From sequence record MH051917: a stretch of DNA of 64,000 bases. One strand, written 5' to 3'. Of this stretch, positions 1,423 through 39,459 are shown in pieces (the stretch's first letter is position 1; the number at the start of each line of letters is the position of its first letter). The translations under genes were made by a program, and so were the position numbers. Source of the DNA: Enterobacteria phage vB_EcoM_IME341. The notes beneath the pieces are model-generated. The model had not been told where the DNA came from. It did no database searches and saw nothing but the letters and a program-made list of their open reading frames with translations.

Positions 1423-1836
1423 ATGAAAGAAATCGCAGACGAATTTAGCTTTATCAAGTACGTCACCCTAGAACTCCAAGATGACGCCACCATAGCTCCA
1501 CTCACAGTACCAAATAAACAAAATGTCATATATGCTATAGCGGTTGATGATATACTAGTCTACATCGGGAAGACTAAAAATCTTCGTAAGCGCATCAACT
1601 ACTACCGAACCGCTATTAATCGTAAGGACCAAACGTCAGATTCGACTAAGTCCATTCTGATTCATGAAGCATTAATGGCAGGTAAAAAGGTAGAGTTCTA
1701 TGCACGGCAGTGCTTTAATCTGTCGATGACTAACGAACTTGGAACTATGTCAGTTGAGACCATGTCTCTTGAAGAGCCAATGTTCATAAAGAAATTTAAT
1801 CCACCTTGGAATACCCAACATAGGATAAAGCAATGA
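1423..1836 (+). CDS. denA: Endonuclease II (DenA), GIY-YIG family
   Basis: Translation from the second Met (MKEIADEFSFIKY...VIYAIAVDDILVYIGKTKNLRKRINYYRTAINRKD...) carries a GIY-x9-YIG motif and matches remembered T4 EndoII in sequence, size and position between nrdB and rnlA. The track start at 1399 would place the first codons in a GC hairpin. Confidence 0.8.
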   Translation: MKEIADEFSFIKYVTLELQDDATIAPLTVPNKQNVIYAIAVDDILVYIGKTKNLRKRINYYRTAINRKDQTSDSTKSILIHEALMAGKKVEFYARQCFNLSMTNELGTMSVETMSLEEPMFIKKFNPPWNTQHRIKQ

Positions 1837-2981
1837 TTGAATTATATGATAACTTGATGGCCCTGGTTAAAAACTCGACTAAATCTAAGTTCTTCTTTAA
1901 AGACTTTCAGAGTGCGCTAGGAGTCAACTATCGCATCTTTAGTTATAACTATGCATCGTACAGTGATTGGTTGGAAGACGGCGCCCTAGAGTGTCGAGGC
2001 ATTATGTTTGAAATGGACGAGAATGGTCCGGTACGTATTGCTGCTCGTCCTATGCAAAAGTTCTTTAACCTCGACGAAAACCCTATGACTATCGGTCTGG
2101 ACTTGTCGCCAGAAAATATCGACCTCGTAATGGCTAAGGAAGATGGTTCTCTGATTTCTACATTCATGGACCGACAGTATCTTTCTGTTAAATCTAAAGG
2201 CTCTATCCATTCGTCAATGGTGCACGATTCTTTACGTTTCCTTCGTCTCCCTGAGAACGAGGCTTTTGCCGCACGTCTAGAAGAAATCACCAAAGCCGGG
2301 TATACCTGCAACCTTGAATATGTCGCACCTACCAACCGTATCGTGCTGGCTTACCAAGAAACGAACCTCATCCTGTTAAACGTTCGTAATAATGAAACAG
2401 GTGAGTATATTCCATATGCTGAACTGTTTAAGGACGGCGCGCTGCGTAAGCATTTGGTTGAAAGTTATGACCTCACCGAAGGTGATTTCGTAGAAAACAT
2501 CCGTAAACAAGAGGGTATTGAAGGTTTTATCTTTGTACTGAAAGATGGTACGTTCTTTAAACTCAAAACTGCATGGTACAGTGCACTGCATCATACCAAA
2601 GATTCCATTAACAATAACGAACGTTTGTTTGAAGTTGTAGTGGCGGGTGGAACTGATGACCTTCGTGGTCTGTTCAGTACAGATTCGTTTGCTATCGAGA
2701 AAATCGATGCCTTCGAACGTATCCATTTAGATTACTTAGAACAATCATTGGCTTTGTTGGAAGCAGCTTACTCTCAACTCAAGGGCCGCGACCGTAAAGA
2801 CTACGCTGTTACTGGACAGCTAATCCTTAAGGACTTCCCAGGGTTGTTCTCTATTCTTATGCAGGCGTACGTAGGCGGTATTAATTATGATACGGTTGTA
2901 GACCAGATTAACTCTGTGTTCTTGAAAAACCATAAAGCCCAAATCCCTGAAAAATATTTGAAAGAAATTGCGGTAGAGTAG
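1833..2981 (+). CDS. rnlA: RNA ligase 1 (gene 63)
   Basis: 382 aa; strong similarity to T4 Rnl1 (e.g. YRIFSYNYASYSDWLEDGALECRGIMFEMDENGPVRIAARPMQKFFNL, KEDGSL lysine-adenylation motif, FVAPTNRIVLAYQE); ATGA overlap with the denA stop. Confidence 0.95.
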   Translation: MIELYDNLMALVKNSTKSKFFFKDFQSALGVNYRIFSYNYASYSDWLEDGALECRGIMFEMDENGPVRIAARPMQKFFNLDENPMTIGLDLSPENIDLVMAKEDGSLISTFMDRQYLSVKSKGSIHSSMVHDSLRFLRLPENEAFAARLEEITKAGYTCNLEYVAPTNRIVLAYQETNLILLNVRNNETGEYIPYAELFKDGALRKHLVESYDLTEGDFVENIRKQEGIEGFIFVLKDGTFFKLKTAWYSALHHTKDSINNNERLFEVVVAGGTDDLRGLFSTDSFAIEKIDAFERIHLDYLEQSLALLEAAYSQLKGRDRKDYAVTGQLILKDFPGLFSILMQAYVGGINYDTVVDQINSVFLKNHKAQIPEKYLKEIAVE

Positions 2982-3009
2982 TTTACATCTCCTCATGATG
3001 TGTTAGTAT
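2981..3009 (+). promoter_or_regulatory. Early (sigma70-type) promoter upstream of the Alc-sized ORF
   Basis: GTTTAC -35, 17-nt spacer, TAGTAT -10, followed by a CATGAGGAG leader. Confidence 0.5.
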
Positions 3010-3039
3010 AGACTTACCAACTAATGAGGAGAAAACAAA

Positions 3040-3540
3040 ATGAATATGCAAATGATTACTAACGAAATGGTTGTTAAGGCTTTTGGTGACTCTACTGACG
3101 GTATCCAAGTTTTTAAAGGTTCTCGTGCAGTAGGTTACCTGACCGATCTTCGTGTTACTTTAGCTAAAAATGCTAAAAAGAAAATCAAGCAAAAAGAATA
3201 CTCTACCCGTTATGCAGAAGAAAAGCGTGAAGCCATGCCTGAAGCTGTTAACTCTATGGTTGAGTTTCTCCAAAACAACCTTTCCAAGTACGATGCCGAG
3301 GTATTCATTAATATTAGCCAACCTAATGTTAAAATCTCAGGCATCACTTTCTATTTGATTTGTGACCCATTAAGCGACAAGTTTAATCGCCTTGGCATTT
3401 CAAGTCCTTACCATACCGCTGAAGAATTATGTTTTATGTTCGAAACGTACAAAATTCAGTGCGAAAATCCTAAAACGGTTCTTATTAATTCCCTGTCACG
3501 TGATGACATCATCGAGATTATTACCAAATGTCTAAATTAA
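3040..3540 (+). CDS. Hypothetical early protein; candidate Alc homologue by position and size only
   Basis: 166-aa ORF with GAGGAG Shine-Dalgarno immediately after rnlA; T4 has the 167-aa alc gene at this position. I cannot verify sequence similarity from memory. Confidence 0.5.
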   Translation: MNMQMITNEMVVKAFGDSTDGIQVFKGSRAVGYLTDLRVTLAKNAKKKIKQKEYSTRYAEEKREAMPEAVNSMVEFLQNNLSKYDAEVFINISQPNVKISGITFYLICDPLSDKFNRLGISSPYHTAEELCFMFETYKIQCENPKTVLINSLSRDDIIEIITKCLN

Positions 3541-3881
3541 GTATTTACCTTTTAGCTGGAGCCATTGCAGTAGGTGCTTACGGTTTTATTTCGTATCAAT
3601 CAAGTCGTATTGATACCCTTACTGAAGAACTGAAAACTACCCAGCAAACGGCCAAACAGAATGCCGAAGCCGTGGATGACCTACGTGGCCAATACTCGGA
3701 TATTGAATTCCGCACTACTGAAATGAATGCCCGATTGGATAAAATTAAGGTAGAAAATGAAAAGCTCCGTAAAGATTCGAAGAAGGCGCACGTGGTGGCA
3801 AGTAAGCCAGGACTGGTCGAAAAACAAATCAACAAGTCCTTCGATTCCTTTACAGAAGACTTCAGGAGCATTACAGAATGA
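3528..3881 (+). CDS. i-spanin (Rz-like, T4 PseT.3 equivalent)
   Basis: 117 aa; N-terminal transmembrane helix (LSIYLLAGAIAVGAYGFISY) followed by a charged coiled-coil periplasmic domain; immediately precedes a lipoprotein ORF. Confidence 0.75.
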   Translation: MSKLSIYLLAGAIAVGAYGFISYQSSRIDTLTEELKTTQQTAKQNAEAVDDLRGQYSDIEFRTTEMNARLDKIKVENEKLRKDSKKAHVVASKPGLVEKQINKSFDSFTEDFRSITE

Positions 3882-4168
3882 TTAAATTATCTGTAGTAGT
3901 ATTATCTATTGGCATGTTAGTTGGATGTGCCCAGGACATCCCTGTAGTGCCTAAGCAACAACTGCATCCTTCATGGCCACAACCTATTGCCGAACATAAT
4001 GTTAAGTGGCAGGTTAAGGTAATCGACGGTAAGGCCTGGGTTGGAATGCCGTTTGAAGATTCCCAAGAACATCGTATTTGGTTGAATGACGTAAAAAGAT
4101 ATGTACAAGACCAGAAATCTATGTTATGTTATTATCGTTCCGGGTTAAAAGAGGAGAAGTGCAAATGA
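3878..4168 (+). CDS. o-spanin (Rz1-like outer-membrane lipoprotein, T4 PseT.2 equivalent)
   Basis: 96 aa; signal peptide with lipobox (SIGMLVGC|AQ), proline-rich mature region; ATGA overlap with the i-spanin stop. Confidence 0.75.
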   Translation: MIKLSVVVLSIGMLVGCAQDIPVVPKQQLHPSWPQPIAEHNVKWQVKVIDGKAWVGMPFEDSQEHRIWLNDVKRYVQDQKSMLCYYRSGLKEEKCK

Positions 4169-4269
4169 TTGAGTGTAGTCTTGGTTGGGATGCCGTTAGA
4201 TTAGCTATCGCATTCTTTTGCTTCGGGATTGCGTTCAGTATGTGTATTGATGGTCTTTTTGGAAAGTAG
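4165..4269 (+). CDS. Possible 34-aa hydrophobic peptide translationally coupled to the o-spanin
   Basis: ATG overlaps the o-spanin stop (ATGA); MIECSLGWDAVRLAIAFFCFGIAFSMCIDGLFGK has one predicted transmembrane segment. Below the ORF-track size cutoff. Confidence 0.3.
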   Translation: MIECSLGWDAVRLAIAFFCFGIAFSMCIDGLFGK

Positions 4270-4298
4270 TTTACAAACTCTTGGGAGCAGAGTATAAT
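4269..4298 (+). promoter_or_regulatory. Early promoter, canonical T4 type
   Basis: GTTTAC-N17-gTATAAT. Confidence 0.65.
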
Positions 4299-4333
4299 GC
4301 TCCTACGGATTATAAAAAATTGAGGAAATTATT

Positions 4334-4812
4334 ATGACTTTACGTGATAACAGTTTTGTGGCTAAGCCTGAATACATTTCAGGTGTTAAATCTCCTGCAT
4401 TACAAAAGCTCCTTAAGCTAGGGTCCTGTGCAAGTACACCACTTGAAAAGAAGGCAACTTTCGATTTTGCTTGGGCTATGGTAGACGGTATTGATGTAGT
4501 AAGACAGGTAACTTTTTATGCTCCAGGGTCTATTGAGCCTTCGCAGATTATTAATTTGGATGGAAGTAATTATATTACCATCCAACAATGGTATCGTATG
4601 ATGCGCCCGGTTTGGGAATACCCTGAATTCGTTGAAGAATATAATGAAAAAGAACGTATTCGTGAATTGGTGAAAAGTTTTGAATATGCGGCTAAACGCC
4701 ATGGTCAAATGCAATCCGCAGTAACCCTTGGCGATGTTCCTGAAAGTGTTGCTTACGAATCAGGTAAAACCCTTAAAACTTGCCGTGAAGAACTTTATAA
4801 GGAACTTGGCGT

Positions 4813-4816
<4 letters not shown>
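4334..4816 (+). CDS. Hypothetical early protein (pseT.1-region ORF)
   Basis: 160-aa ORF downstream of a canonical early promoter (GTTTAC-N17-TATAAT at about 4269-4298) with an AGGAAA Shine-Dalgarno. Confidence 0.6.
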
Positions 4817-6016
<1,200 letters not shown>

Positions 6017-6017
<1 letters not shown>

Positions 6018-6214
6018 TGAATAATATCGAAAAGATTTTTCGTACAATCGAAGAAATTGAAAAACGTAAATGCTTTTTCTTCGGCGTATGGCCTTTAACT
6101 GATGGACGTATTGGCCTGGATGTTATGGACTATAAAGATGAAGACAAGGTCGATGGTGGTATTTTTAAATCCGCTCCTGAACTCCTTGCCTTCTTGGAAG
6201 AACATTATGTATAA
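6017..6214 (+). CDS. Hypothetical small protein (cd.x-region ORF)
   Basis: ATG overlaps the pseT stop (TAATG); 65 aa from the internal Met of track ORF 5987..6214. Confidence 0.45.
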
Positions 6215-6422
6215 CAAACACCATGAAGTTGAAGAAGAAGCTTATAAAGAGCTTCAGAAACTGGTAGGTCAGAATATGTCTCCTACCCTCATTAACTCAC
6301 TAGCGGCCCTTCGTAATGACCTCAACGAACGTTACAAAGGCGAGTACTATGTTGAGTTTGTTCCTCTGACTGAAGTCGTTGACCGGTTTATTGTTAACGT
6401 GAAGGTCCATACAGTACACTGA
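6207..6422 (+). CDS. Hypothetical small protein
   Basis: Internal ATG of track ORF 6102..6422 positioned at the upstream stop; 71 aa. Confidence 0.45.
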   Translation: MYNKHHEVEEEAYKELQKLVGQNMSPTLINSLAALRNDLNERYKGEYYVEFVPLTEVVDRFIVNVKVHTVH

Positions 6423-6429
6423 GGTAATT

Positions 6430-6708
6430 ATGTTCCCCACTTATTCTCAAATTGTTAAAACCGTTTTTAGTCAGATTGTATCTGATTATCTATACGAAAC
6501 CGTCGACGTGTCGACTGAACTAAAAGTGCACGGACGTTTGTCTGCTATTCTGGAAATCATGTTCCCAGATGCAGTTGATGCAATCACTGTTCAACTCACG
6601 CCTGGTGCAGCATTTGCAATTGTTCCATTTAAAATTGATAACCACATTTTGGCTATTTCATGCAAAATGGACTTCCAGAAACAAACGGTAGTTGTCGAAG
6701 CAATTTAA
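6430..6708 (+). CDS. Hypothetical protein
   Basis: 92-aa ORF, tightly packed, GAGG upstream. Confidence 0.5.
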   Translation: MFPTYSQIVKTVFSQIVSDYLYETVDVSTELKVHGRLSAILEIMFPDAVDAITVQLTPGAAFAIVPFKIDNHILAISCKMDFQKQTVVVEAI

Positions 6709-6710
6709 GT

Positions 6711-6740
6711 GTTTACTTTCACCAAGGACGGTGATATGAT
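6711..6740 (+). promoter_or_regulatory. Early promoter-like element
   Basis: GTTTAC-N17-aTATGAT upstream of ORF 6771. Confidence 0.45.
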
Positions 6741-6770
6741 GACCTTACCGAAACAAATGAGGAAATCGAA

Positions 6771-7325
6771 ATGAGTAAGTTCTTTGAAGAGCGTAAGTTT
6801 TACAAGTTCGTTGGTGAATACACTAAAAACAAATTCACTAATAACGGTGCTTATGGCCTCAATACAGCTTTTGCTAAGTATGTGGGTATGAATCCGTTTG
6901 AAGTTGAAATTGATTACCATAATGGGCGTGAACGTGTAAGCCGAATTCGCGTATATGACGAGATGATGTTTGTCGACCCGAGCAAAATGACAGGTAATCC
7001 TGACGATGCAAATAGTGTTCTTTTTAATTCAGCGGGCTTTTTTAGCCATGAATTCGAATACTTTATCGAAGTGGTAGACCCTAAAGAAGTGCAGTTAGTT
7101 TTCCAGAACCCTGAAATCAAACCTATTAAAACTCCAGCCGATTGGAAAGTGCTTATTGTTAAAAATGGTAAGATTGAAGTTCATTCTCGCCATAACACAA
7201 AGGAACAAGCCGATCGTCAGGCTGAAGAGCTTTTGACCAGTTCGTTCCAACAAGTGTGTTATATTGTTAAAGGCGATGTTACCCAAGCTACCACTACCAA
7301 ACAACTTAAGTTGGAGACAATCTAA
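6771..7325 (+). CDS. Hypothetical protein
   Basis: 184-aa ORF with GAGGAAA Shine-Dalgarno; an early promoter-like GTTTAC-N17-TATGAT lies at about 6711-6740. Confidence 0.6.
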   Translation: MSKFFEERKFYKFVGEYTKNKFTNNGAYGLNTAFAKYVGMNPFEVEIDYHNGRERVSRIRVYDEMMFVDPSKMTGNPDDANSVLFNSAGFFSHEFEYFIEVVDPKEVQLVFQNPEIKPIKTPADWKVLIVKNGKIEVHSRHNTKEQADRQAEELLTSSFQQVCYIVKGDVTQATTTKQLKLETI

Positions 7326-7561
7326 TGCTGAGCGAAAACCCTATTACTGTAGAGCAGTTCCACGTTAAAGTTAAAGAATTTGCTCAGGCCCTGATTAATA
7401 AGGTTTCTGTACGTTTTCCTGATGCAACTCTGCGAGTAATTCAGGAATCACCGCGTGCGGTATTGGTTATCGTTAATCCTAAAGACGGCGACCAGATTAC
7501 CCAATTGAAACTTGGTTCTGATGGTCTGGTCGAAGCACAGCGGGTTTATATTGATGCTTAA
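7325..7561 (+). CDS. Hypothetical protein
   Basis: 78-aa ORF; start overlaps the upstream stop (TAATG). Confidence 0.5.
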   Translation: MLSENPITVEQFHVKVKEFAQALINKVSVRFPDATLRVIQESPRAVLVIVNPKDGDQITQLKLGSDGLVEAQRVYIDA

Positions 7562-7892
7562 TTTAAAACTAGCAGTTAATGCCACCTTACAATCTGACGA
7601 AGACGGAGACCATCGAGGTCTCTCTGAAAAGGCTACTCAGTACATCAAAGACCTTTTTAAACTGAGTGAAGATTTCCAAAGCATCCATACTTCAACATAT
7701 GATGCTGTGCTGGCTACTGTTCTTCCGGTTGAAATTGGTGATCGAATTCCGGCGGCGGTATTTTTCGATAAACAAAAACGCTTCCCAGACGGTTATGGTA
7801 TATTAACCTCACGTGTGAAATCTATCACTAAACTTCGTACCGATTTATATCGTGTCGAAACCAATAATACAGCTTATCTAGTGGTGATGTAA
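7554..7892 (+). CDS. Hypothetical protein
   Basis: Internal ATG of track ORF 7512..7892 overlapping the upstream stop; about 112 aa; ends at the cd start. Confidence 0.45.
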   Translation: MLNLKLAVNATLQSDEDGDHRGLSEKATQYIKDLFKLSEDFQSIHTSTYDAVLATVLPVEIGDRIPAAVFFDKQKRFPDGYGILTSRVKSITKLRTDLYRVETNNTAYLVVM

Positions 7893-13212: not shown

Positions 13213-14718
13213 ATGATTTTAGATATCTTAAACGAAATTGCTGCTATTGATTCTACTAAAGCTAAAGAAGCCATTATTGCTCGTGAAAAGGACAATGAGC
13301 TTCTGAAACGTGTTTATCGTATGGCTTATACCCGTCGTTTGAACTATGGTATTAAAAAGTGGCCAGAACCTGGATTTACGTCTCAATCCTTTGGTATGAT
13401 TACTCTTGAAGACCTTCTTGATTTCGCAGAGTTCACATTAGCCACTCGTAAGATTACGGGTAATGCGGCTATTGAAGAACTGGCTCAAATCATTGCTGAT
13501 GCTAAGGCCCCGGATGCCGAGGTATTACGTCGTGTAATGATGCGTGACCTTGAATGCGGTGCATCGATTTCTATTGCTAACAAGGTTTGGAAAGGTTTAA
13601 TCCCTGAACAACCTCAAATGTTAGCTAGTTCTTATGATGAAGATTTGATTAAGAAAAATATTAAATGGCCAGCATTTGCTCAATTAAAAGCTGACGGTGC
13701 TCGTTGTTTTGCCGAAGTTCGTAACGATGGTGTGACATTCCTTACTCGTGGTGGTAATGAATATCAAGGGCTTAATCTTTTGGCTGCTGAATTAATGGCC
13801 ATGACCGAAGAAGCTCGACAACGCCATCCTAATGGTGTTATGATTGACGGCGAATTAGTTTACCACACTCCTAAAGTAGAACCTAAAGCATCTAATGATT
13901 TGTTTAGTATGTTTGATGAGGAACTTCCTGAATTAAGTAAGGCTAAGGAATTCCAAACTGTCGCCGATCGTTCCACGTCAAACGGCTTGGCTAACAAGGC
14001 TCTTCAAGGGACTATTACTCCAGCCGAAGCCGATGGTATGGTATTACAGGCATGGGACTTTGTTCCACTGGATGAAGTTTATTCTGAAGGCAAAATTAAA
14101 GGCCAAAAATACGATGTTCGTTTAGCGGCATTAGTACAAATGGCTGAAGGCTTTACACGTGTCGAGCCTATCGAAACGCAATGGGTTAATAATCTTGAAG
14201 AAGCTAAAGTCGTTTATAAAAAATATGTCGACCAAGGTCTGGAAGGCATTATCCTTAAGAACATGGACTCCTACTGGGAAAACCGCCGTTCTAAGAATCT
14301 TATCAAGTTCAAAGAAGTAATCGATATCGCTTTAGAAGTGGTAGGTTATTATGAACACTCGAAGGACCCTAACAAACTAGGCGGTGTCGAGTTGGTATCA
14401 CGTTGTCGTCGAATTACAAGTGACTGTGGTTCAGGCTTTAAAGATACTACCCATAAGAAAGATAAATCAGGTAAAAAGGTATTGATTCCATTGGAAGACC
14501 GCCCTGATTTAGACCGTGAACTTCTTATGAAGCAAGCTCGTGAAGGTAAGTTGATTGGACGTATTGCTGACTGTGAATGTAATGGTTGGGTTCATTCTAA
14601 AGGACGTACAGATACTGTAGGTATTTTCCTTCCAATCATTAAAGGTTGGCGTTTCGATAAAACAGAAGCTGATACATTTGAAGATGTATTCGGTGATTGG
14701 TCTCAAACTGGACTATAA
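13213..14718 (+). CDS. 30: ATP-dependent DNA ligase (gene 30)
   Basis: Matches T4 DNA ligase from MILDILNEIAAIDSTK...; adenylation motif region AFAQLKADGARCFAEVR; C-terminal ...CECNGW...KTEADTFEDVFGDW. Start placed at the Met behind GAGGTG, not the track's upstream Met. Confidence 0.95.
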   Translation: MILDILNEIAAIDSTKAKEAIIAREKDNELLKRVYRMAYTRRLNYGIKKWPEPGFTSQSFGMITLEDLLDFAEFTLATRKITGNAAIEELAQIIADAKAPDAEVLRRVMMRDLECGASISIANKVWKGLIPEQPQMLASSYDEDLIKKNIKWPAFAQLKADGARCFAEVRNDGVTFLTRGGNEYQGLNLLAAELMAMTEEARQRHPNGVMIDGELVYHTPKVEPKASNDLFSMFDEELPELSKAKEFQTVADRSTSNGLANKALQGTITPAEADGMVLQAWDFVPLDEVYSEGKIKGQKYDVRLAALVQMAEGFTRVEPIETQWVNNLEEAKVVYKKYVDQGLEGIILKNMDSYWENRRSKNLIKFKEVIDIALEVVGYYEHSKDPNKLGGVELVSRCRRITSDCGSGFKDTTHKKDKSGKKVLIPLEDRPDLDRELLMKQAREGKLIGRIADCECNGWVHSKGRTDTVGIFLPIIKGWRFDKTEADTFEDVFGDWSQTGL

Positions 14719-14719
14719 T

Positions 14720-14893
14720 ATGAAAGCTTATTTAGAAACAATTGTAATATCACATACTACGGCTGCCCCAGCCGTTTCTCAAACCATTTTAGAATTCATA
14801 GATGAAGCCGCATATAATAAATTTATTGAGGTCTTTGATGGCTATGAAAAAGGCCCGACATTCGAAGTATACCGTACGTTGCTACCACTTTAA
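14720..14893 (+). CDS. Hypothetical small protein
   Basis: ATG one nt after the ligase stop; 57 aa; followed by a GC hairpin. Confidence 0.4.
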   Translation: MKAYLETIVISHTTAAPAVSQTILEFIDEAAYNKFIEVFDGYEKGPTFEVYRTLLPL

Positions 14894-14910
14894 GGCCTTC
14901 GGGCCTTTTC
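14892..14910 (+). terminator. Hairpin / weak terminator upstream of alt
   Basis: AAGGCC-TTCG-GGCCTT followed by TTCTGG; a CATAAATA late-promoter-like box follows. Confidence 0.45.
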
Positions 14911-14943
14911 TGGCATAAATAAGGTTATTAAAGAGGAATTATT

Positions 14944-17028
14944 ATGACCGAACAATTAAATGAAGTGTTTGAGTCCGAAGGCACACTGCCTACAGTAAAC
15001 TTGAACCCTAAACTTAAAGTACCACAGATTTGGAAGATTGGAGACGTAGAGTCTCAATTAGTGGCGCGTATTGTGTCCTACGCTTCTGAAGGCGATGCCA
15101 TTAAACAAGTTAAATTGGGTGACAAATATGCCCACGTTATCCTTATGAGCCTTTCGGCTAAAGGTTCTCCTGCTGAACTTAAAGGCGGCTTAGGCCCTAC
15201 TCCTATTGATGCCATTAATACCATTTTCGACGTAGTATTCGAACAAGTTAAAAAGCTTCGTATGGATGCCGTGATGTTCCGTTTCCCTACCAAGAAAATG
15301 AAAGGACAAGGCCCTATTGTCCAGAGAATTATCCAACGTTTAGTAACTCAAAAAACCGGCGGGCGTTTCAAAGTAGTTCCAGCTATGTACCAATTTACGG
15401 GCAAGCATACTTATATCTTAGTAGTTCGTAAACAAGCTGATATCGAAGATATCAAAGGTATGCCAGGAATTAATGCCGAATTATATACTAAGGTAGATTC
15501 TGATGTCGGTGAAGTTTATATTTCTAAAAAAGAAGGCGTGCAGGTTACTAAAGAAACTGCTATTGCCGGCAGTATTGCTAAAGTTGAAGAACGTCGCACT
15601 GATAAAATGGTTATAACTAAGACTAAGATTTCTCGTCGTGCCATTGCAGCAAGTCAATCGTTAGAATCTTATCGTAATGAAAGTGAACTGTTTAAGAAAT
15701 ATGAAGCAAATGCTGTAGATTTTAATAAACCGGCGACAGCTCCATTAATCCCTGAGGCCCAGGAAATGGTCACTAATAACAATTCTCCTGCGGCTAAAAA
15801 TAAGGTTGCTAATATAGTAGCTGAAGGTACTGCCGAAGAGTTGCATTATGATTATAAAATGTTTCCTCTTCACGGTATAGGTGAAATCCAAGAGAAAATT
15901 AAAGAGAAAATCCTGTCAGCCATCAAAAACGAACCTTTGACATCTGTTAAAGCTCTAGAAAAATACGCCTCTGTTATTAATACCGTTTTCGAAGAATACA
16001 AAGGCGAATGGTTGGCCCAGCATAACAAAACTCGTAAAGGCCAACCTGACGACCTCTGGAATGAATTGACCGAGTCCAAGTGGAAAGCAGCCAAGACCAA
16101 ATTCATTAAAAAACGCGTATATAGTTTTGCTGGTGTAGGTGGCGGTATTATGGTCGATATTACTATTGCTCGTGAGGGCTCTAAATATACCCCATCACAA
16201 AAGCGCGGCATCAGAGAATATTGCGGTTCAGGATATACAGATATCAATAATCTTCTTTTAGGACGCTATAATCCTCATAACTATGATGTAATGAACGAAA
16301 AATCTATTGAATCTGCAGTTAATAATTTGGATTCTGCTTTTGAAAATGGTGACCGTATACCGGAAGGCATTACAGTTTATCGTGCACAGAGTATGACTGC
16401 TCCTATATACGAAGCACTAGTTAAAAATAAAGTGTTCTATTTTAGAAATTTTGTATCTACTTCTTTAACTCCTATCATTTTTGGACGATTTGGTGTTACA
16501 CACGCCGGTATCGGTCTTTTAGAACCGGAAGTTCGCGATGAATTGACGGTCGATAAAAATGAAGAAGGAATAACTATTAACCCTAATGAAATAAGAGCGT
16601 ATAAAGAAAATCCTGATTACGTTAAAGTTCAAATAGGATGGGCGATTGACGGTGCTCATAAAGTTAATGTGGTATATCCAGGAAGTCTCGGAATAGCAAC
16701 TGAAGCTGAAGTCATTTTACCTCGTGGGTTAATGGTCAAAGTTAATAAAATAACAGATGCTTCTAATAATGACGGAACAACATCTAATAATACAAAACTC
16801 ATCCAAGCCGAAGTTATGACGACAGATGAGCTTCAAGAATCTGTGGTGTATGATGGTGACGTACTAATGGAAACCGGCGAGTTGGTCGTATATCAAGATG
16901 ATTTCGATACTTCCGAAAGCCCTGTATCTTTTGATTCATTTGTTAAATCTACACGGTTTGATGTACTGCCTCTTTTGGCTTCATGCATAGACCTCTATGA
17001 CATCCCAGAAAAATTCATCCAAGGGTAA
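14944..17028 (+). CDS. alt: Alt ADP-ribosyltransferase (head-packaged, modifies host RNA polymerase in T4)
   Basis: 694 aa; strong similarity to T4 Alt across the whole length, including ART-type motifs YRAQSM / FRNFVSTSL / EAEVILPRG and C-terminal ...YDGDVLMETGELV. Confidence 0.9.
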   Translation: MTEQLNEVFESEGTLPTVNLNPKLKVPQIWKIGDVESQLVARIVSYASEGDAIKQVKLGDKYAHVILMSLSAKGSPAELKGGLGPTPIDAINTIFDVVFEQVKKLRMDAVMFRFPTKKMKGQGPIVQRIIQRLVTQKTGGRFKVVPAMYQFTGKHTYILVVRKQADIEDIKGMPGINAELYTKVDSDVGEVYISKKEGVQVTKETAIAGSIAKVEERRTDKMVITKTKISRRAIAASQSLESYRNESELFKKYEANAVDFNKPATAPLIPEAQEMVTNNNSPAAKNKVANIVAEGTAEELHYDYKMFPLHGIGEIQEKIKEKILSAIKNEPLTSVKALEKYASVINTVFEEYKGEWLAQHNKTRKGQPDDLWNELTESKWKAAKTKFIKKRVYSFAGVGGGIMVDITIAREGSKYTPSQKRGIREYCGSGYTDINNLLLGRYNPHNYDVMNEKSIESAVNNLDSAFENGDRIPEGITVYRAQSMTAPIYEALVKNKVFYFRNFVSTSLTPIIFGRFGVTHAGIGLLEPEVRDELTVDKNEEGITINPNEIRAYKENPDYVKVQIGWAIDGAHKVNVVYPGSLGIATEAEVILPRGLMVKVNKITDASNNDGTTSNNTKLIQAEVMTTDELQESVVYDGDVLMETGELVVYQDDFDTSESPVSFDSFVKSTRFDVLPLLASCIDLYDIPEKFIQG

Positions 17029-17031
17029 ATA

Positions 17032-19155
17032 ATGGAAAATTTAAACGAGGTTTTTGATAGTGATTCCGCTAAAAACTATCCAGTAACAAATCTTAAACCG
17101 GGTTCCGGTATCCCACAGATTTTCTCTATCCATGCACCAGGTAATGATAACCTGGTGGCTCGTATGGTATCTTATGCGTCTCAAGGAGACGCTATTAAAA
17201 TGGTTAAGCCAGGCGACAAATACATTCATGTTATTCTAATGAGTTTGTCAAGCAAGGGTGCTCCGGCTGAACTTAAGGGTGGCCTTGGTTCTGACCCACT
17301 TGGTACACTGAATACCATTTTCGATACTGTATACGAACAAGTAAACAAACTTAAAATGGATGCAGTTTTATTCCGTTTCCCTACCAAGAAAATGAAAGGT
17401 AAGGGTCCTACTGTTCAGCGCGTATTGGCACGTTTGGCGATGGCTCGTACCGGTGGTAAGTTTAAAGTTGTTGACAACATGTTCCAATTCAGTGGAAAAC
17501 ATACCTACGTTCTTTTAGTACGTCGTGGTTCTAATATCGAAGATATCAAAGGCATGCCTGAAATTGATGCTGACCTTTATACCAAAGTCGATTCTAAAGT
17601 CGGCGAAGTGTATGTTTCTAAGAAAACCGGCCAGGCCGTAAGTAAGGTCGAAGCCGTAGCGGCATCTATTGCACAGGTTGAAGAGAAACGTACCGATAAG
17701 GCTGTCATTACTCGTACTAAGATTTCACGACGTATGGCCGCAGCCGCGCAGTATTCTACTGCTGAGCCTGAAACTTTGCCCCCTAAAGAATTGCAGGTTT
17801 ATAACGAATTTGAAGCTTCTGTACCGGTTCACACTGCCGAAGGCCCTGAGAACGAAGGTATTGAACAGATTAGTCAGAACTTTAAAAAAGGTGCTATTAC
17901 CAAAATGCGCCAGGCTTCTCAGTTTAAATCTAAGAGCGAGGACCTTGCCAACTTTAGATACACCATTGCTCTCACACATGCTTTAATGACTGATAGTAAA
18001 TTTAAACTAAATTATGCTAATAGAGATAAACAAGGGTTTGAAATTTACTCTAAAAATATGGCATTTTTTAATACAGAAGTCGATAGACTTTTAAGCGGCC
18101 TTTCGCAAATCAATACAACTAATAGTCTGGATATTATTAAGAGAATTGTTAATAACCTGAGTGCCCGTTTTAATGGTTCCCCTTCAGAGAAAGCATCTCG
18201 AATTGCTTTCGCTATGGAAGCCGTTTATAAACTGATTAACGATTCTATTGGTGATGCATATGCTTATTCAGGCGAACTCATTAAACCTAAGGACCTAACC
18301 AAAGACGAAAGCAATGCTATTATTGAATATTGCGCAGCTGAATATGCTCCTATGAACTTATTCCTTTTAGGTAAACCTGAATCCGAAAACAATACAACGG
18401 CTATTAGATTGATTAAGGATTTAGACTCGGCATTTACTAAGGGTATTAAACTTCCTAAGGGTACTATTTTGTATCGTGGTCAGGATTTGCCATACAAAAT
18501 TCTGCGTCATAATATCGATAACAAAACATTTTACTTTAAGAACTTTGTGTCCGCCTCACTAAAGCCTAACATCTTTGGTGAATTCGGTAAAAATTATATG
18601 GCCCTCGACAACCAAGCCGTTTTTGTTGGTGGTGAAGGTTCTTTATCCTCCGCTGATGAGTTGTTTAAATTGGCTAGTGGTAGTTCATCTGATGTGGGTG
18701 AAGTCGATGACGAAGAGGTAGAATGGGAAGAAGACGAGTTTGGTAATCCAATTGCCCCTGAAGGTCCTGCGGATAGAATTGCTGAAATAGGCATGGTTAT
18801 TCGAGGTGCTGAAGCAGTTAAAGTTATCGCTCCTGGTGACCTTACAGAATACGCTGAAGAAGCAGAAATCATCCTTCCGCGAGGATTATTGATGAAGGTT
18901 GATAAAGTAGCGGCTTTTGCTATGAATGATAGGGTATCTCACAAATATCTTATGGAAGCTACTGTGATGTCTCCTTCAGAGCTCAGTGAATCTGTTTACG
19001 ATGGTGACCATCTAATGGAAACCGGTGAAGTTCGTCCGATGGATGGCTTTAAACAGTTCTTGGTTAGTGAATCTGTTTCTGAAAGCAACGAGGCTATGGA
19101 AATCTTAGCAGCATCTTTGGATATCTCTTCTCTACCAAATAAATTCAAAATGTAG
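17032..19155 (+). CDS. Alt-like ADP-ribosyltransferase paralogue
   Basis: 707 aa; N-terminal 230 aa collinear with Alt (MENLNEVFDSD...MSLSSKGAPAELKGGLG...); retains R / S-x-S / E-x-E motifs (YRGQDL, FKNFVSASL, EAEIILPRG); diverged middle region plus an acidic insertion (DVGEVDDEEVEWEEDEF). Confidence 0.85.
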   Translation: MENLNEVFDSDSAKNYPVTNLKPGSGIPQIFSIHAPGNDNLVARMVSYASQGDAIKMVKPGDKYIHVILMSLSSKGAPAELKGGLGSDPLGTLNTIFDTVYEQVNKLKMDAVLFRFPTKKMKGKGPTVQRVLARLAMARTGGKFKVVDNMFQFSGKHTYVLLVRRGSNIEDIKGMPEIDADLYTKVDSKVGEVYVSKKTGQAVSKVEAVAASIAQVEEKRTDKAVITRTKISRRMAAAAQYSTAEPETLPPKELQVYNEFEASVPVHTAEGPENEGIEQISQNFKKGAITKMRQASQFKSKSEDLANFRYTIALTHALMTDSKFKLNYANRDKQGFEIYSKNMAFFNTEVDRLLSGLSQINTTNSLDIIKRIVNNLSARFNGSPSEKASRIAFAMEAVYKLINDSIGDAYAYSGELIKPKDLTKDESNAIIEYCAAEYAPMNLFLLGKPESENNTTAIRLIKDLDSAFTKGIKLPKGTILYRGQDLPYKILRHNIDNKTFYFKNFVSASLKPNIFGEFGKNYMALDNQAVFVGGEGSLSSADELFKLASGSSSDVGEVDDEEVEWEEDEFGNPIAPEGPADRIAEIGMVIRGAEAVKVIAPGDLTEYAEEAEIILPRGLLMKVDKVAAFAMNDRVSHKYLMEATVMSPSELSESVYDGDHLMETGEVRPMDGFKQFLVSESVSESNEAMEILAASLDISSLPNKFKM

Positions 19156-19212: not shown

Positions 19213-19503
19213 ATGAAATCTGCATTCCGTTTTAATGGTCAAGAACTGGTAGTTGAAAACGTTATTCCTGCTTCCGAAGAGTTTGACAGTGCCATTGGTA
19301 ATGAATTGCGTCGAGTTTTCGGTGAAGATAAGCAATTTGATATCCGTCCTGTTGAGAACTTTTCTCAGCCGGAACAAACTGAAAATATCTTTAATGGTGT
19401 AGTGACTGGTCAGCTTGAATCCGAAGCTCCTATTTCAGTTACGGTATTTGTTAAAAAGCAACCATTAACGACGGCGGCAGGTTTCATTTCGTTCCGTAAG
19501 TAA
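19213..19503 (+). CDS. Hypothetical protein (alt-downstream ORF)
   Basis: 96-aa ORF with GAGGAG Shine-Dalgarno behind an early-type promoter; followed by a bidirectional terminator. Confidence 0.55.
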   Translation: MKSAFRFNGQELVVENVIPASEEFDSAIGNELRRVFGEDKQFDIRPVENFSQPEQTENIFNGVVTGQLESEAPISVTVFVKKQPLTTAAGFISFRK

Positions 19504-19512
19504 ACCCCTAAA

Positions 19513-19537
19513 GGAGAGCGTATGCTCTCCTTTTTTG
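19513..19537. terminator. Bidirectional rho-independent terminator between convergent alt-region and gene 54 transcripts
   Basis: GGAGAGC-GTAT-GCTCTCC hairpin followed by TTTTTTG on the plus strand. Confidence 0.75.
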
Positions 19538-34212: not shown

Positions 34213-34235
34213 GGGACCGTAAGGTCCCTTTTTTT
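34213..34235. terminator. Bidirectional terminator between convergent rnlB and the gene 24 paralogue
   Basis: GGGACC-GTAA-GGTCCC hairpin flanked by an A-run and TTTTTTT. Confidence 0.8.
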
Positions 34236-35517
34236 AGTTTTTATCCAATGGAGGAAGTTTAACACCAAGATAAGAACTCAATTGACTTTGATTAGCCATT
34301 TTGTCCATATCCGCACCGTCAATAATACGAGCTTCTTTGTCGTCTTTAGCGACGGTATAAGGATTCGCAGTCAATGCATACCGAGCCAATAAAGATATGG
34401 TAGGTTGCAATGAATCTGGGTCTACAATAACCTTGAATTCACCTACTGAAGTATCACCTTCATCATCAACTTCTTCGAGCCCTTCCGTATAAGGCGCATA
34501 ATACAAAGATGCGACCGTCTGCCCTTCACCCATCTGAGCATTTACACCGACAATAACATAATCACACGGACTATTCATATCAGCATAAAGTGGTAGACCG
34601 TTCTTTAATATGCCATAAGCTAATTCGTCTTGGTCTTCTTTTTTCTCAACCCAACCGGATGCAGCTAAAATAGCGGCGCAACGAGAAGAAGCTACTGCAT
34701 AAGTACCTGCAAACGAAGTCTGGCGTTGAACAGCAGAATTCATTTCACACATATAGTAATACAAGGTACGCGCTCGGTCTTGGGCGTTATCATATTGTGG
34801 GTCTGTTAAGTTCAAGACGCCTTTCTCGGAAACTCCTTGGACTTTAAAACGAGAACTTACCGTAATTAAGGACTGTAATACGTCTTTATTAATTTCTTCG
34901 GCCATTTGAATAGCCAAAATATTGTCTATAAAGTCTGGTGCATTAAACCCGTTGGATTCTAAATCCTGGGCCAGTTCTACAGTCAAAGAAGTTTTAAGTT
35001 TACGCGATTTAACTTCAGTCTGCCACTTATCAATACGGAATCCTGCTTCAGCAATCTCAGGATGGCCTTTTTCAAATTTATTGGTAAAGGCTGCATCAGA
35101 CATCATACGAATATGGCCTGCTGCAATAGCTTCTGAAATAACTTCACCCAAATCGGTTTCAGTTGTTCCTGCAAACGGAGAAGCTTCTAATACCTTGAAA
35201 ACCACACTTTCGAATTGGAACATATCACCAACAGCATATGCTTCGTCTTTATCGGTGAATTCAGGAATGTTTTTACGTTCGAACATACCAATTTCGCCTG
35301 CAAAAGTGGCTCCGCCGAGATAAGTCATTTTATCGTCTGGGTTTAAAACACGGACACCATATAATGCTGCAACAGGTTGAGTAGTTTTTTGTTCAGCAAC
35401 AAGGGCTTTAAAAATTCTTTTATTAGTTGCCTGGGTATATGAAAGAAGATTAGGACGGGCGACCTGGTTGGCCGCCGTCAAAGTTGATTCTTGTATTAAT
35501 GCATTAATCTTTTTCAT
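34234..35517 (-). CDS. Capsid vertex protein paralogue (gp24-like, second copy)
   Basis: 427 aa; roughly 50% identical by eye to the adjacent gp24 (e.g. ...RPNL...AT.K.I....AEQ.T.QP.AALYGV..L.PD...); starts one codon after the gp24 stop (TAAATG). Confidence 0.85.
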   Translation of the reverse strand: MKKINALIQESTLTAANQVARPNLLSYTQATNKRIFKALVAEQKTTQPVAALYGVRVLNPDDKMTYLGGATFAGEIGMFERKNIPEFTDKDEAYAVGDMFQFESVVFKVLEASPFAGTTETDLGEVISEAIAAGHIRMMSDAAFTNKFEKGHPEIAEAGFRIDKWQTEVKSRKLKTSLTVELAQDLESNGFNAPDFIDNILAIQMAEEINKDVLQSLITVSSRFKVQGVSEKGVLNLTDPQYDNAQDRARTLYYYMCEMNSAVQRQTSFAGTYAVASSRCAAILAASGWVEKKEDQDELAYGILKNGLPLYADMNSPCDYVIVGVNAQMGEGQTVASLYYAPYTEGLEEVDDEGDTSVGEFKVIVDPDSLQPTISLLARYALTANPYTVAKDDKEARIIDGADMDKMANQSQLSSYLGVKLPPLDKN

Positions 35518-36798
35518 TTATGCCTCGTAAATAATTGGAGGAAGTTTAACACCAAGCAGATAAGACATATTACTCTGCCCTGCCATTAAATCCATATTAG
35601 TTGCGTCTATAACACGAGCTTCTTTATCATCTTTAGCAACGGTATACGGGTTTGCTGAAAGTGCATAACGAACCATCAGAGAAATAGCCGGTTGCAAACT
35701 ATCAGGGTCTACAATAACTTTATAGGCACCAACATGTTCTTGGTCGTCTAAATCCAGACCTTCGGTATACGGAGCATAGAAAATAGAACCAACTACTTCA
35801 TTACCGCCGTAATCTTCTTTAACGCCTACGATAACATAATCTAAAGGACTATTAACATCACAGAATACAGGCAATCCATTAATCAAATAACCGTAAGCAG
35901 TTTCTGGGAGCCAAGCTTCATCTTCTGGTTTATGTTTCAACCAACCTGAACCTGCAAGCATTGCGGCTACACGACTAGATGCGACAACAAACGTACCTGA
36001 ATAAGAAGTGGTTTTCTGAATTTCAGAATTCATCTCACAAACCATTTCATATAATTTACGTGCACTTTCTGGAGCGGAATTATAGGACAAATCAATAATA
36101 CCGTTATCAGATACACCAGTTACTTTGTAACGTTTAGATACGGTAATCAAGGATTGTAATACGTCTTTATTGATTTCATCAGCCATTACAGTGGCTAAAA
36201 GGTCTTCTAAGAACGCAGGGGCGTCGAAGCCATTAGATTCCATGTCTTGGGCTAGTTCTACAGTCAAAGCGGTTTTAAGCTTACGGGACTTAACAGGGGC
36301 GTTCCATTTATTAACCTGGAATACTGCATTGCTAATTTCAACATCACCTGCTTCGAATTTTTCTGTGTGGGCCGCATCAGGAACAAGACGACAAGTTAAT
36401 GACACCAAACCTTCTTGAAGGGCATCAGCCAATTCTGTAGCGCTAGTGGATGCGAGTGGGCTTGCTTGAAGAGCCTTATAAACCACATTCTGATACTTGA
36501 AATATTCACCCTCGGCAATCGCCTGGGCCTTATCTGTGAGTTCCGGGATAGTTTCACGGTCTTTAGAACCAACTTCACCGCCATAAACGGCACCAGTTTG
36601 GAAGCTGAATTCATTATCAGGGGTAAGATATTTGACACCATACAATGCAGCAATAGGCTGGCTAGTACGTTGTTCAGCAATAATATCACGGTAAATCAAT
36701 TTGGTTGTAGCACGGGTCAAAGCAACAAGATTAGGGCGACCCAATGAGTTGCTAGAAGTAGTTGTTGACTCGCGCAGTAATTCGTTAATCTTTGCCAT
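35518..36798 (-). CDS. 24: Capsid vertex protein gp24
   Basis: 426 aa; near-identical to T4 gp24 (MAKINELLRESTTT.SNS.GRPNLVALTRATTKLIY.DI.A.QRT.QP...); late promoter TATAAATA about 29 nt upstream. Confidence 0.95.
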   Translation of the reverse strand: MAKINELLRESTTTSSNSLGRPNLVALTRATTKLIYRDIIAEQRTSQPIAALYGVKYLTPDNEFSFQTGAVYGGEVGSKDRETIPELTDKAQAIAEGEYFKYQNVVYKALQASPLASTSATELADALQEGLVSLTCRLVPDAAHTEKFEAGDVEISNAVFQVNKWNAPVKSRKLKTALTVELAQDMESNGFDAPAFLEDLLATVMADEINKDVLQSLITVSKRYKVTGVSDNGIIDLSYNSAPESARKLYEMVCEMNSEIQKTTSYSGTFVVASSRVAAMLAGSGWLKHKPEDEAWLPETAYGYLINGLPVFCDVNSPLDYVIVGVKEDYGGNEVVGSIFYAPYTEGLDLDDQEHVGAYKVIVDPDSLQPAISLMVRYALSANPYTVAKDDKEARVIDATNMDLMAGQSNMSYLLGVKLPPIIYEA

Positions 36799-37869: not shown

Positions 37870-37899
37870 AAATAATTTAAGAATTAATAACTTATGTTA

Positions 37900-39459
37900 T
37901 CAAATTCCCTTAACGTAAACGCGACGGAAGTAACCATTCAGACCGAGGCTGTTAACGATGTCAGGCATACCATTCTGAATACGTTTGGTAGGCGCCTGAG
38001 CAGCTGGGTCAGCGAACGGGTTAATACCGATACCGTAACGAGTTTTGAAGCCCATTACCGGTTGGAAGTTCTTCGGATCGGAACCACGCAGCGGAGTCAG
38101 TGCAACGTACGGAGCATAGTAGATACCTGCGTCCATTTCGTTAGAACCTTTATAACCGATGGTGAAGTAATCGGAACGAGCATACTGGTCGATGTAAACA
38201 CGATATTTACCACCAAGAACACCGGCAAATACTGCTTTGGTTGTGTCAACGTTGAAACCCTGACCCAAACCTTGAGCTGCATAACTTACAGAAGTATCAA
38301 CTGCAGCCAGTACGTTAACTACGTTACGGGAAGCGATGATGAAGTTACCAGCACCACGACCGGTCTGACGAGCGATTTCGGCTGCTTCTTTATCAATCTG
38401 GAACAGAAGGGCTTTAAAGCTCTCACCGGCCCAACGAGCACCACGGATATCAATCGGGTCCTGGAAGTCAAACACACCAGCTTTAGCGCCAACGGTGTTG
38501 GTCATACCAGATTTACCAACCTGTGCAGAGTAGTTAATCCAATCGATAACTTCACGGTTGATTTCGAGCATAATTTCGGTAGCAAGGATACCGGACAGTT
38601 CAGCATCTGCATCCATACCGTGTACTGCACGAAGGTCCTGTGCCAGTTCGATAGAGTAGCTTGCTTTCAGCTGACGGGATTTAGCTTCGATAACTTGTTT
38701 GTCGATGCGGAAGCCCATTTCGTTCCACGGGTTATCGGTAGAACCGTTGAAACCTTCCTGAAGTTCAGCGATAGAAGTAGCCATACCTTCAGCGATTTCA
38801 GCCAGTTGACCAGCTTCAACCAGAGCGGTAACAGCAGCATCCAGTTTAGCGGCATCAGTAGCGCCTGCATCAACGGTCACAGCTTCAACAGCCTGGAAGT
38901 GTGCAGCACCGGTAGCTTCGAAGAAGTGAGAATAAATTTTACCAACTTCCAGAACTTTGCTTGCAGCCAGTGCTTCGAAAGTTTCAGCAGCACCCTGACC
39001 AGAGAACATAGCGTTCGGAGCATACATCGGATGGAAAGCTTCTTTAGCGCCTGCAGCGATAGGGTCTTTACCGTATACTGCACGCAGTGCAAATACCTGA
39101 CCAGTAGGGTTATTCAGAGGCTGAACACCACAAATATCAAAAGCAATCAGATGAGGAATAGCACGACGAACCATACCCATTACTGCCGGCCCAATCTGAG
39201 TTACAGCACCAGAGGTCTGGCCAGCTGCGATATTGGTAGCATCATAACCGTGGTCACCACCGATTTCAGCTTCAGTCAGGAAAGAACCAAATGCTTCGGA
39301 GATTTTTTCGTCACGATATTCTGGAGCAGTCAGGATGTCTTGTTCCTGGTTTTCGAAAATTTTAGCGATGATAGCTTGTTTAGAAGCACCAACGATTTCA
39401 GGAAGAGCTTCGTTTTCCAGCAGAGCGGACCATTTTTGAACTAATGCATTCTTTTTCAT
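37900..39459 (-). CDS. 23: Major capsid protein gp23
   Basis: 519 aa; near-identical to T4 gp23 over most of its length (QAIIAKIFENQE...GSFLTEAEIGGDHGY.ATNIAAGQTSGAVTQIGPAVMGMVRRAIP.LIAFDICGVQP...). Confidence 0.98.
   Translation of the reverse strand: MKKNALVQKWSALLENEALPEIVGASKQAIIAKIFENQEQDILTAPEYRDEKISEAFGSFLTEAEIGGDHGYDATNIAAGQTSGAVTQIGPAVMGMVRRAIPHLIAFDICGVQPLNNPTGQVFALRAVYGKDPIAAGAKEAFHPMYAPNAMFSGQGAAETFEALAASKVLEVGKIYSHFFEATGAAHFQAVEAVTVDAGATDAAKLDAAVTALVEAGQLAEIAEGMATSIAELQEGFNGSTDNPWNEMGFRIDKQVIEAKSRQLKASYSIELAQDLRAVHGMDADAELSGILATEIMLEINREVIDWINYSAQVGKSGMTNTVGAKAGVFDFQDPIDIRGARWAGESFKALLFQIDKEAAEIARQTGRGAGNFIIASRNVVNVLAAVDTSVSYAAQGLGQGFNVDTTKAVFAGVLGGKYRVYIDQYARSDYFTIGYKGSNEMDAGIYYAPYVALTPLRGSDPKNFQPVMGFKTRYGIGINPFADPAAQAPTKRIQNGMPDIVNSLGLNGYFRRVYVKGI

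Follow-up and report, generated by a model that had tools for sequence, protein, structure and literature searches.

The stretch of Enterobacteria phage vB_EcoM_IME341 analysed here (sequence record MH051917; the window, 64,000 nucleotides (nt) in all, in whose numbering all positions are given, features lying on the + strand unless stated otherwise) contains the alt locus of a JS98/IME08-type T-even phage of the genus Dhakavirus, at which two genes of the Alt family of ADP-ribosyltransferases (ARTs) stand in tandem. These are altA in the first slot (14944..17028, 694 amino acids) and altB in the second (17032..19155, 707 amino acids). The pair is real, a chance origin being excluded by the open reading frames (ORFs), motifs and family matches taken together. 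The likely reading of the locus as a whole is that altA and altB encode two functional enzymes, expressed from one bicistronic message, packaged in the phage head, processed by gp21, injected, and directed at partly different host targets.

Alt is the textbook case of an enzyme that a phage injects alongside its DNA, and almost everything known about it comes from T4, in which the second copy has been lost. Two or three diverged Alt enzymes are encoded by many phages related to T4, among them therapeutic candidates of the JS98/IME08 group. Should each of these enzymes act on targets of its own, the set of proteins delivered within seconds of the start of infection would be richer and more variable than in the T4 model, and this could affect which hosts are infected or how well bacterial defences are withstood. 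The altA/altB pair is already known, being annotated in near-identical phages and common among T4 relatives; it has been catalogued for more than 15 years and is of value as a system ready for experiments and not as a discovery. The mosaic cassette architecture of the locus is the one added insight and the most interesting by-product of the analysis.

The gene pair and its catalytic core

The 6.5 kb around the alt locus has 97.6% DNA identity to Escherichia phage IME08 and 91-95% identity to other Dhakavirus phages, including JS10, AnYang, MX01, QL01 and dhaeg. In the IME08 record the corresponding genes are labelled alta and altb, both as Alt RNA polymerase ADP-ribosylase, with protein identities of 99.3% for altA and 99.6% for altB, and since the same names are also used in the JS10 record the pair has to be regarded as already catalogued. 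The gene order in IME08 is gene 30 (DNA ligase) and alt.1, then alta and altb, then alt.-3 and gene 54, and the slot occupied by the pair in the window, between gene 30/alt.1 and alt.-3/gene 54, is syntenic with that of T4 alt. Both ORFs start with ATG, and both match PF03496, the ADP-ribosyltransferase exoenzyme family (altA, E = 7e-36; altB, E = 9e-18), and PHROG 802, 'Alt-like RNA polymerase ADP-ribosyltransferase', the latter over residues 1-693 of altA (E = 1e-261) and 1-707 of altB (E = 4e-251). The BLASTP alignment with T4 Alt spans the whole length of each protein, and database homologues carry PF26846 in addition to PF03496. The two genes are paralogues (BLASTP E = 3e-143, 39% overall identity) and their junction reads TAA-ATA-ATG, leaving a gap of 3 nt. 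A first-pass annotation of this DNA, made from its letters and their ORFs, had described a 707-residue Alt-family gene lying three nucleotides after one of 694 residues, which agrees with the coordinates in the ORF list; its term "canonical alt" for the first gene is right as to the family but loose, as altA is only 47% identical to T4 Alt and has an RB27-type catalytic cassette.

The catalytic residues of altA were located by alignment as Arg480 (16381..16383), the S505-T-S507 motif (16456..16464) and the E587-A-E589 motif (16702..16710). In altB the ART catalytic domain comprises residues 426-645 (18307..18966), as supported by PF03496 and Foldseek matches, and holds the catalytic Arg482 within YRGQDL (18475..18477), S507-A-S509 within FKNFVSASL (18550..18558) and E610-A-E612 within EAEIILPRG (18859..18867). 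The T4 counterparts are R478, S503-T-S505 and E574-M-E576 in Alt, and R72, S96-A-S98 and E163-Q-E165 in ModA. A five-way alignment of altA, altB, T4 Alt, ModA and ModB has invariant columns for the arginine, the first serine and both glutamates. Across an alignment of 126 Alt homologues, from which all the family counts given below are also taken, the arginine is present in 125, S507 in every sequence, S509 in 119 and both glutamates in all 126; the residues Y433, Y438, N442, L445 and G447 of the helix that binds nicotinamide adenine dinucleotide (NAD) are invariant or nearly so in the family and are all kept in altB. The R / S-x-S / E-x-E motifs that had been picked out in the second ORF are present and correctly placed, and the alignment to T4 Alt, ModA and ModB that had been proposed as a check revealed no loss of catalytic residues from either protein. 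The ExE signature is typical of arginine-specific ARTs. Both genes probably encode arginine-specific mono-ADP-ribosyltransferases of the T4 Alt family, and both enzymes are probably active; as full-length Alt-family proteins with intact catalytic residues, altA and altB both look functional. It has been reported that replacement of the second glutamate of ExE in ModA (E165A) and the T4 Alt change 'E577A' abolish activity (PMC11404850). In the T4 RefSeq translation the name 'E577A' misses a glutamate, as ExE is E574-M-E576 and residue 577 is valine, which suggests that the numbering in that paper is offset by one residue.

An AlphaFold2 model of altB, built from an alignment of 78 sequences (mean predicted local distance difference test score, pLDDT, 76.4; predicted template modelling score 0.71), consists of an alpha/beta N-terminal domain, an all-helical region at about residues 205-420 and an ART domain at 424-645. 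When the model was compared with the PDB using Foldseek it matched Vis, Certhrax, C3 exoenzymes, Plx2A, VIP2, iota Ia and CDTa, with E values from 6e-7 to 6e-4, and the predicted fold is that of an R-S-E clade ART of the C3/Vis/VIP2 type. A search of the PDB by sequence for any Alt protein found no entry and produced only weak matches to CDTa, iota toxin and C3. Comparison with the AnYang orthologues gives a ratio of non-synonymous to synonymous substitution rates (dN/dS) of 0.07 for altB overall and 0.015 in its ART domain, the lowest value of any region, and of 0.08 for altA; selection on altB is strongly purifying. That altB is a pseudogene or a chance ORF was also considered and was ruled out by the dN/dS of 0.07 together with the full-length family matches.

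It has to be asked whether altB might have retained the Alt scaffold without the chemistry, as an inactive head-core protein or a decoy. Such a pseudo-enzyme could be argued for from the S-A-S motif that replaces S-T-S, from the match of altB to the Pfam ART family, which is split and weaker than that of altA, and from an acidic, predicted-disordered loop of 24 residues inside the catalytic domain. This loop, the acidic insertion that the first-pass annotation had remarked on, is DVGEVDDEEVEWEEDEFGNPIAPE (residues 554-577, 18691..18762) and is placed between the strands that carry S-x-S and ExE; it corresponds to a gap in 72% of the 126 family members and has a pLDDT below 50 in the model. It is found only in Dhakavirus altB, being shorter in P0004 and missing from the 72%-identical P0002, and region-wise alignment indicates that it is absent from the second Alt of Tequatrovirus RB27. 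Set against these features are the retention of R482, S507, S509, E610 and E612 together with Y433, Y438 and N442 of the NAD-binding helix, the occurrence of the same S-A-S variant in ModA of T4 (S96-A-S98), which is an active enzyme, and the exceptionally low dN/dS of the altB ART domain, and they make loss of activity very unlikely.

Expression, processing and packaging

The region before altA contains a GC hairpin, AAGGCC-TTCG-GGCCTT, with a run of T's after it (14892..14909); this hairpin probably terminates the upstream transcript and is almost identical to one found upstream of T4 alt. It is followed by a putative late-promoter box, CATAAATA (14914..14921), 22 nt upstream of the altA start codon, that matches the T4 box TATAAATA at seven of eight positions; in T4 the hairpin, conserved almost base for base, is followed at the syntenic position by an exact TATAAATA. 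No exact TATAAATA box occurs near altA or altB, sigma-70-like promoter matches were no commoner than in shuffled sequence, and altB has no promoter-like element of its own. A strong ribosome-binding site, AAAGAGGAA (14930..14938), precedes altA, and an AAGGG Shine-Dalgarno-like element for altB (17021..17025) is embedded in the last codons of altA, 6 nt before the altB ATG. The lack of a separate altB promoter, the 3-nt gap and the position of AAGGG inside the 3' end of altA suggest that the two genes are co-transcribed and translationally coupled. The junctions between alt genes are identical within Dhakavirus (...AAATTCATCCAAGGGTAAATAATGGAAAATTTAAACGA...), including both junctions in AnYang, and the T4 and RB27 junctions are identical to each other and have the same layout as that in the window.

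The prohead core of T4 contains about 40 copies of Alt (PMC9958956, PMC9026906), and mass spectrometry has established that gp21 cuts it at ITE-6 and LTE-619, with removal of 63 C-terminal residues, to give a product of 68.2 kDa (PMC5694885). The predicted mature T4 protein, residues 7-619, has a computed mass of 68.2 kDa, in agreement with the published value, and an isoelectric point (pI) of 8.4. Alignment to the site at ITE-6 predicts an N-terminal propeptide MTEQLNE in altA, ending at the gp21 site LNE-7 (14944..14964), and MENLNE in altB, ending at LNE-6 (17032..17049). Alignment to LTE-619 predicts C-terminal propeptides of 62 residues after LQE-632 in altA (16840..17025) and of 54 residues after LSE-653 in altB (18991..19152), the pLDDT of the altB model being low over residues 653-685. 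The scissile glutamate is kept at the N-terminal site in 126 of 126 family members and at the C-terminal site (E653 in altB) in 125. Cleavage at these positions would yield a mature altA of 69.5 kDa with a pI of 8.78 and a mature altB of 71.2 kDa with a pI of 6.15. Virion mass spectrometry of T4-like Klebsiella phages has placed an Alt-family ART among the most abundant non-structural proteins (PMC13119998). Judging from the cleavage motifs and from homology, both proteins are probably packaged in the head, processed by gp21 and injected, which supports the first-pass annotation in reading both as head-packaged, injected enzymes.

Of the predicted mature proteins only altB is acidic, T4 Alt and altA being basic, and this might be taken to mean that altB is made and not packaged, acting late in the producing cell in the manner of a large ModA or ModB. 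However, altB keeps the N-terminal domain and both gp21 motifs, including the predicted C-terminal propeptide, for none of which is a purpose in an unpackaged protein obvious, and it is predicted to be co-transcribed with altA in a late-gene context, so that a purely intracellular role appears highly improbable.

The sequence of events envisaged for the packaged pair is as follows. The genes would be transcribed late as one mRNA from the late-promoter-like box after the hairpin, a function suggested by the layout of these elements, and altB would be translated by coupling across the 3-nt gap with the help of the Shine-Dalgarno element in the 3' end of altA. The precursors, of about 77-78 kDa, would enter the prohead core as T4 Alt does, where gp21, if the L-x-E motifs are a reliable guide, would remove 6-7 N-terminal residues and a C-terminal propeptide of 54-62 residues to leave a basic altA* of about 69.5 kDa and an acidic altB* of about 71.2 kDa. 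By homology, the mature enzymes would then leave the head together with the DNA and, with NAD+ as substrate, would ADP-ribosylate arginines of host proteins. Their different effector cassettes, including the acidic disordered loop that only altB has, would most probably lead them to partly different host targets.

Divergence of the copies and mosaic evolution of the locus

The divergence of altA and altB is very unevenly distributed. With altB numbering, identity is 66-67% over residues 1-235, 9-12% over residues 250-425, where the two proteins are effectively unalignable, 37-40% over the ART domain (426-645) and 41-43% over the tail (646-707), in keeping with the earlier description of a common N-terminal region and a diverged central one. 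Entropy per 25-residue block in the family alignment follows a similar pattern, with values of 0.6-1.2 for the conserved residues 1-235, 2.0-2.7 for the hypervariable residues 250-425 and an intermediate 1.1-1.8 for the ART core, rising to 2.4 in a variable loop at residues 526-550. The conserved N-terminal alpha/beta domain of altB (residues 7-235, 17050..17736) has the lowest entropy of the protein and a pLDDT of 87.7; it gave no confident fold match, and no Pfam match in the local library, and is presumed to have a role in head incorporation. The middle domain (residues 250-425, 17779..18306), hypervariable across the family and all-helical in the model, is a candidate target-recognition module. 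A phmmer search with it against 1.84 billion representative proteins found no genuine homologue outside the Alt family, and the domain is effectively an orphan. Six phmmer matches were rejected as artefacts, since they were to long repetitive proteins in which a motif of about 20 residues was matched many times. The loop before ExE also differs between altA and altB. From the unrelated middle domains, the different pre-ExE loops and the mature pI of 6.15 against 8.78, it is plausible that the two enzymes have different host targets.

Tandem alt genes are widespread. The Dhakaviruses AnYang, MX01, WG01 and QL01 have three alt genes in a row (positions 1476-7736 in AnYang), and in RB27 an alt gene of 697 codons is followed after 3 nt by a second full-length Alt of 685 residues that is labelled alt.-2. 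In the T4 RefSeq record alt.-1 and alt.-2 jointly represent an old partial duplication of the 5' part of alt and align with the first 125 or so residues of an Alt protein. With the altB N-terminal domain as query, tblastn located 1,744 places in 1,200 phage records, and in an evenly spaced sample of 60 of these records 27 had two or three such places.

The N-terminal domains group by phage lineage: identity is 67% between altA and altB, 68% between the two RB27 copies and 42-45% across genera, and in this domain the first RB27 copy shares 99% identity with T4 Alt. The middle and ART regions group by effector type and not by lineage. The altA ART domain has 95% protein identity to that of the first RB27 copy and only 63% to that of T4 Alt, while the altA and RB27 N domains are 45% identical; for altB and the second RB27 copy the middle-domain and ART-domain identities are 45% and 58%, compared with about 10% and about 40% between the A and B types. 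An N domain at least 80% identical to that of altB was found joined to five different ART types, and in phage Bp7 an N domain 93% identical to that of altB precedes a middle domain and an ART domain that are 62% and 78% identical, respectively, to those of T4 Alt. The alt locus is, on this sequence evidence, a mosaic in which the N-terminal 235 or so residues follow lineage and the middle and catalytic domains behave as exchangeable cassettes. At the catalytic core of altA (16174..16923) the DNA is 88-92% identical to RB27 against a background of 55-66% between the window and RB27 across the alt locus, and because of this patch the segment looks to have been exchanged recently with Tequatrovirus, that is, between genera. 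The conserved N domain, tail and identical junctions would provide homology for unequal crossing-over and cassette replacement; from the mosaic pattern, which is observed, we infer that tandem duplication and the exchange of cassettes drive the evolution of the locus.

These observations bear on the main rival to partly distinct targets, namely that altB is redundant with altA, modifying the same principal targets (RNA polymerase alpha and other Alt substrates) and retained to raise the dosage or to insure against variation in the host, its divergence being surface drift. The two proteins do share architecture, catalytic residues and predicted processing, and T4 manages with one Alt after the decay of its second copy, which seems in this light to be dispensable. 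Redundancy is difficult to reconcile with middle domains that are only 9-12% identical between the copies yet conserved within each type across genera, with the strong purifying selection on each Alt type, and with the persistence of distinct types side by side in many genomes, some of which have three. Type conservation and coexistence appear to fit specialisation better than redundancy, which is considered unlikely; the pseudo-enzyme, unpackaged and non-protein-substrate explanations are less likely than redundancy. The last of these supposes that altB, with its highly diverged effector cassette, modifies something other than arginine, for instance by attaching NAD-capped RNA to proteins or by acting on nucleic acid, and it may be noted that ModB, of the same R-S-E clade, performs RNAylation (bioRxiv 10.1101/2021.06.04.446905). 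Against it, altB has the ExE signature, its closest relatives are of the Alt type and not the Mod type (15-18% identity to ModA and ModB), and no specific pointer to an RNA or DNA substrate was found; of the four alternatives it is the most improbable.

A broader and decidedly tentative proposal is that the T-even alt locus may serve as an array of readily swapped effector cassettes, injected from the head, in which a lineage-specific N-terminal packaging module and the C-terminal propeptide flank interchangeable middle and ART units that recombine between genera and, by tandem duplication, fill one to three slots. In such an array altB might represent a distinct specificity class, its orphan helical domain, pre-ExE loop and acidic loop perhaps directing it to non-classical host proteins, possibly ones involved in defence or stress responses. 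A weaker addition to this proposal is that the conserved N-terminal domain could have a degenerate GNAT-like fold and serve a separate function.

Several points weigh against the interpretation of altA and altB as two active, injected enzymes with partly different targets. The S-A-S of altB departs from the S-T-S that most of the family has, with threonine at the central position. In the AlphaFold2 model the acidic loop and several other ART loops of altB are of low confidence. The box upstream of altA reads CATAAATA and not the consensus TATAAATA. The argument for distinct targets is drawn wholly from sequence divergence. Finally, the literature yielded no activity assay, virion proteomics or target identification for altB of any phage, and likewise nothing relevant on the virion proteomics of JS98-type phages and no functional work on the annotated altA and altB genes of IME08, JS10 or JS98.

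Flanking genes and comparison with known systems

Between the DNA ligase gene and altA lies a homologue of alt.1 (14678..14893, 71 amino acids; PHROG 1976, E = 2e-25), annotated as alt.1 in IME08 and situated as in T4. The last gene of the + strand block, after altB, is a homologue of alt.-3 (19213..19503, 96 amino acids; PHROG 1739) that is 57% identical to T4 Alt.-3, and an intrinsic-terminator-like hairpin with a 10-bp stem and a following T run (19510..19533) ends the alt block between the convergent alt.-3 and gene 54. In T4, mutations that extend Alt.-3 at its C-terminus allow escape from the CmdTAC defence system (PMC11618068). The homologue in the window ends in ...FISFRK, as does T4 Alt.-3. 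A scan of the window for transfer RNA genes found none. Elsewhere in the window there is a second tandem duplication, of gp24-like head-vertex genes on the - strand (34234-35517 and 35518-36798, 427 and 426 amino acids), which are 56% identical, both match PHROG 138 and lie beside the major capsid gene (37900-39459). The capsid gene, a gene 23 homologue on the - strand, is covered over nearly its whole length by an uninterrupted antisense ORF of 516 codons (37894-39444, + strand) with no PHROG match; this is probably a by-product of the codon composition of the capsid gene, though it is unusually long for a genome of about 39% GC.

The systems to which altA and altB can be compared range from bacterial toxins to genes that are essentially the same. 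C3, Vis, Certhrax, VIP2, iota Ia and CDTa have the ART fold predicted for altB and the R / S-T-S / (Q/E)xE layout, with target-normalised TM-scores of 0.54-0.67 for the single-domain ARTs and about 0.3 for the longer two-domain toxins, at sequence identities of 12-19%. The C3/VIP2-type toxins are, however, secreted bacterial proteins with eukaryotic targets, they have neither the N-terminal nor the middle domain of the phage proteins and they undergo no prohead-protease processing. A comparison was also made with the MuF-fused polyvalent head effectors (Iyer et al. 2017, PMC5512222), and neither altA nor altB was found to have a MuF domain or any Pfam domain besides PF03496. ModA and ModB of T4 have the same R-S-ExE core as altA and altB, to which they are 15-18% identical over the ART core, but they are proteins of about 200 residues without the N-terminal domain, middle domain or propeptides, and they are expressed early and not packaged.

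T4 Alt is an NAD+--arginine ADP-ribosyltransferase that is packaged in the head and ejected with the DNA, and its classical target is Arg265 of RNA polymerase alpha. It is collinear over its full length with both altA and altB and shares with them the catalytic motifs, the gp21 motifs, the genomic position and the layout of the hairpin and the late-promoter box, putative in the window. Its identity is 47% to altA and 32% to altB, and the middle domains of altB and T4 Alt show no relationship (14%); altB differs from it further in the acidic insertion, the S-A-S motif and the acidic mature pI, and T4 has only one intact copy. The T4 alt.-1/alt.-2 remnant occupies the same second slot as altB but is truncated and split. 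The second Alt of RB27 likewise stands in the second slot, 3 nt after alt, and is of the altB effector type (middle domain 45%, ART domain 58%, tail 63% identical), but it has a Tequatrovirus-type N domain, with 44% identity to that of altB, and seems to be without the acidic insertion. In the three-gene arrays of AnYang, MX01, WG01 and QL01 the first and last genes correspond to altA and altB (ART domains 96-100% identical) with identical junctions, and the extra middle gene, which is not present in the window, combines an altB-type N domain (91%) with a third effector type (ART domain 34-42% identical to the others). Closest of all are the altA and altB genes of IME08, JS10 and JS98, which have the same order, 3-nt spacing and flanks (30, alt.1, alt.-3 and 54), the JS10 altB being 96% identical, and which differ from the genes in the window by strain-level substitutions only.

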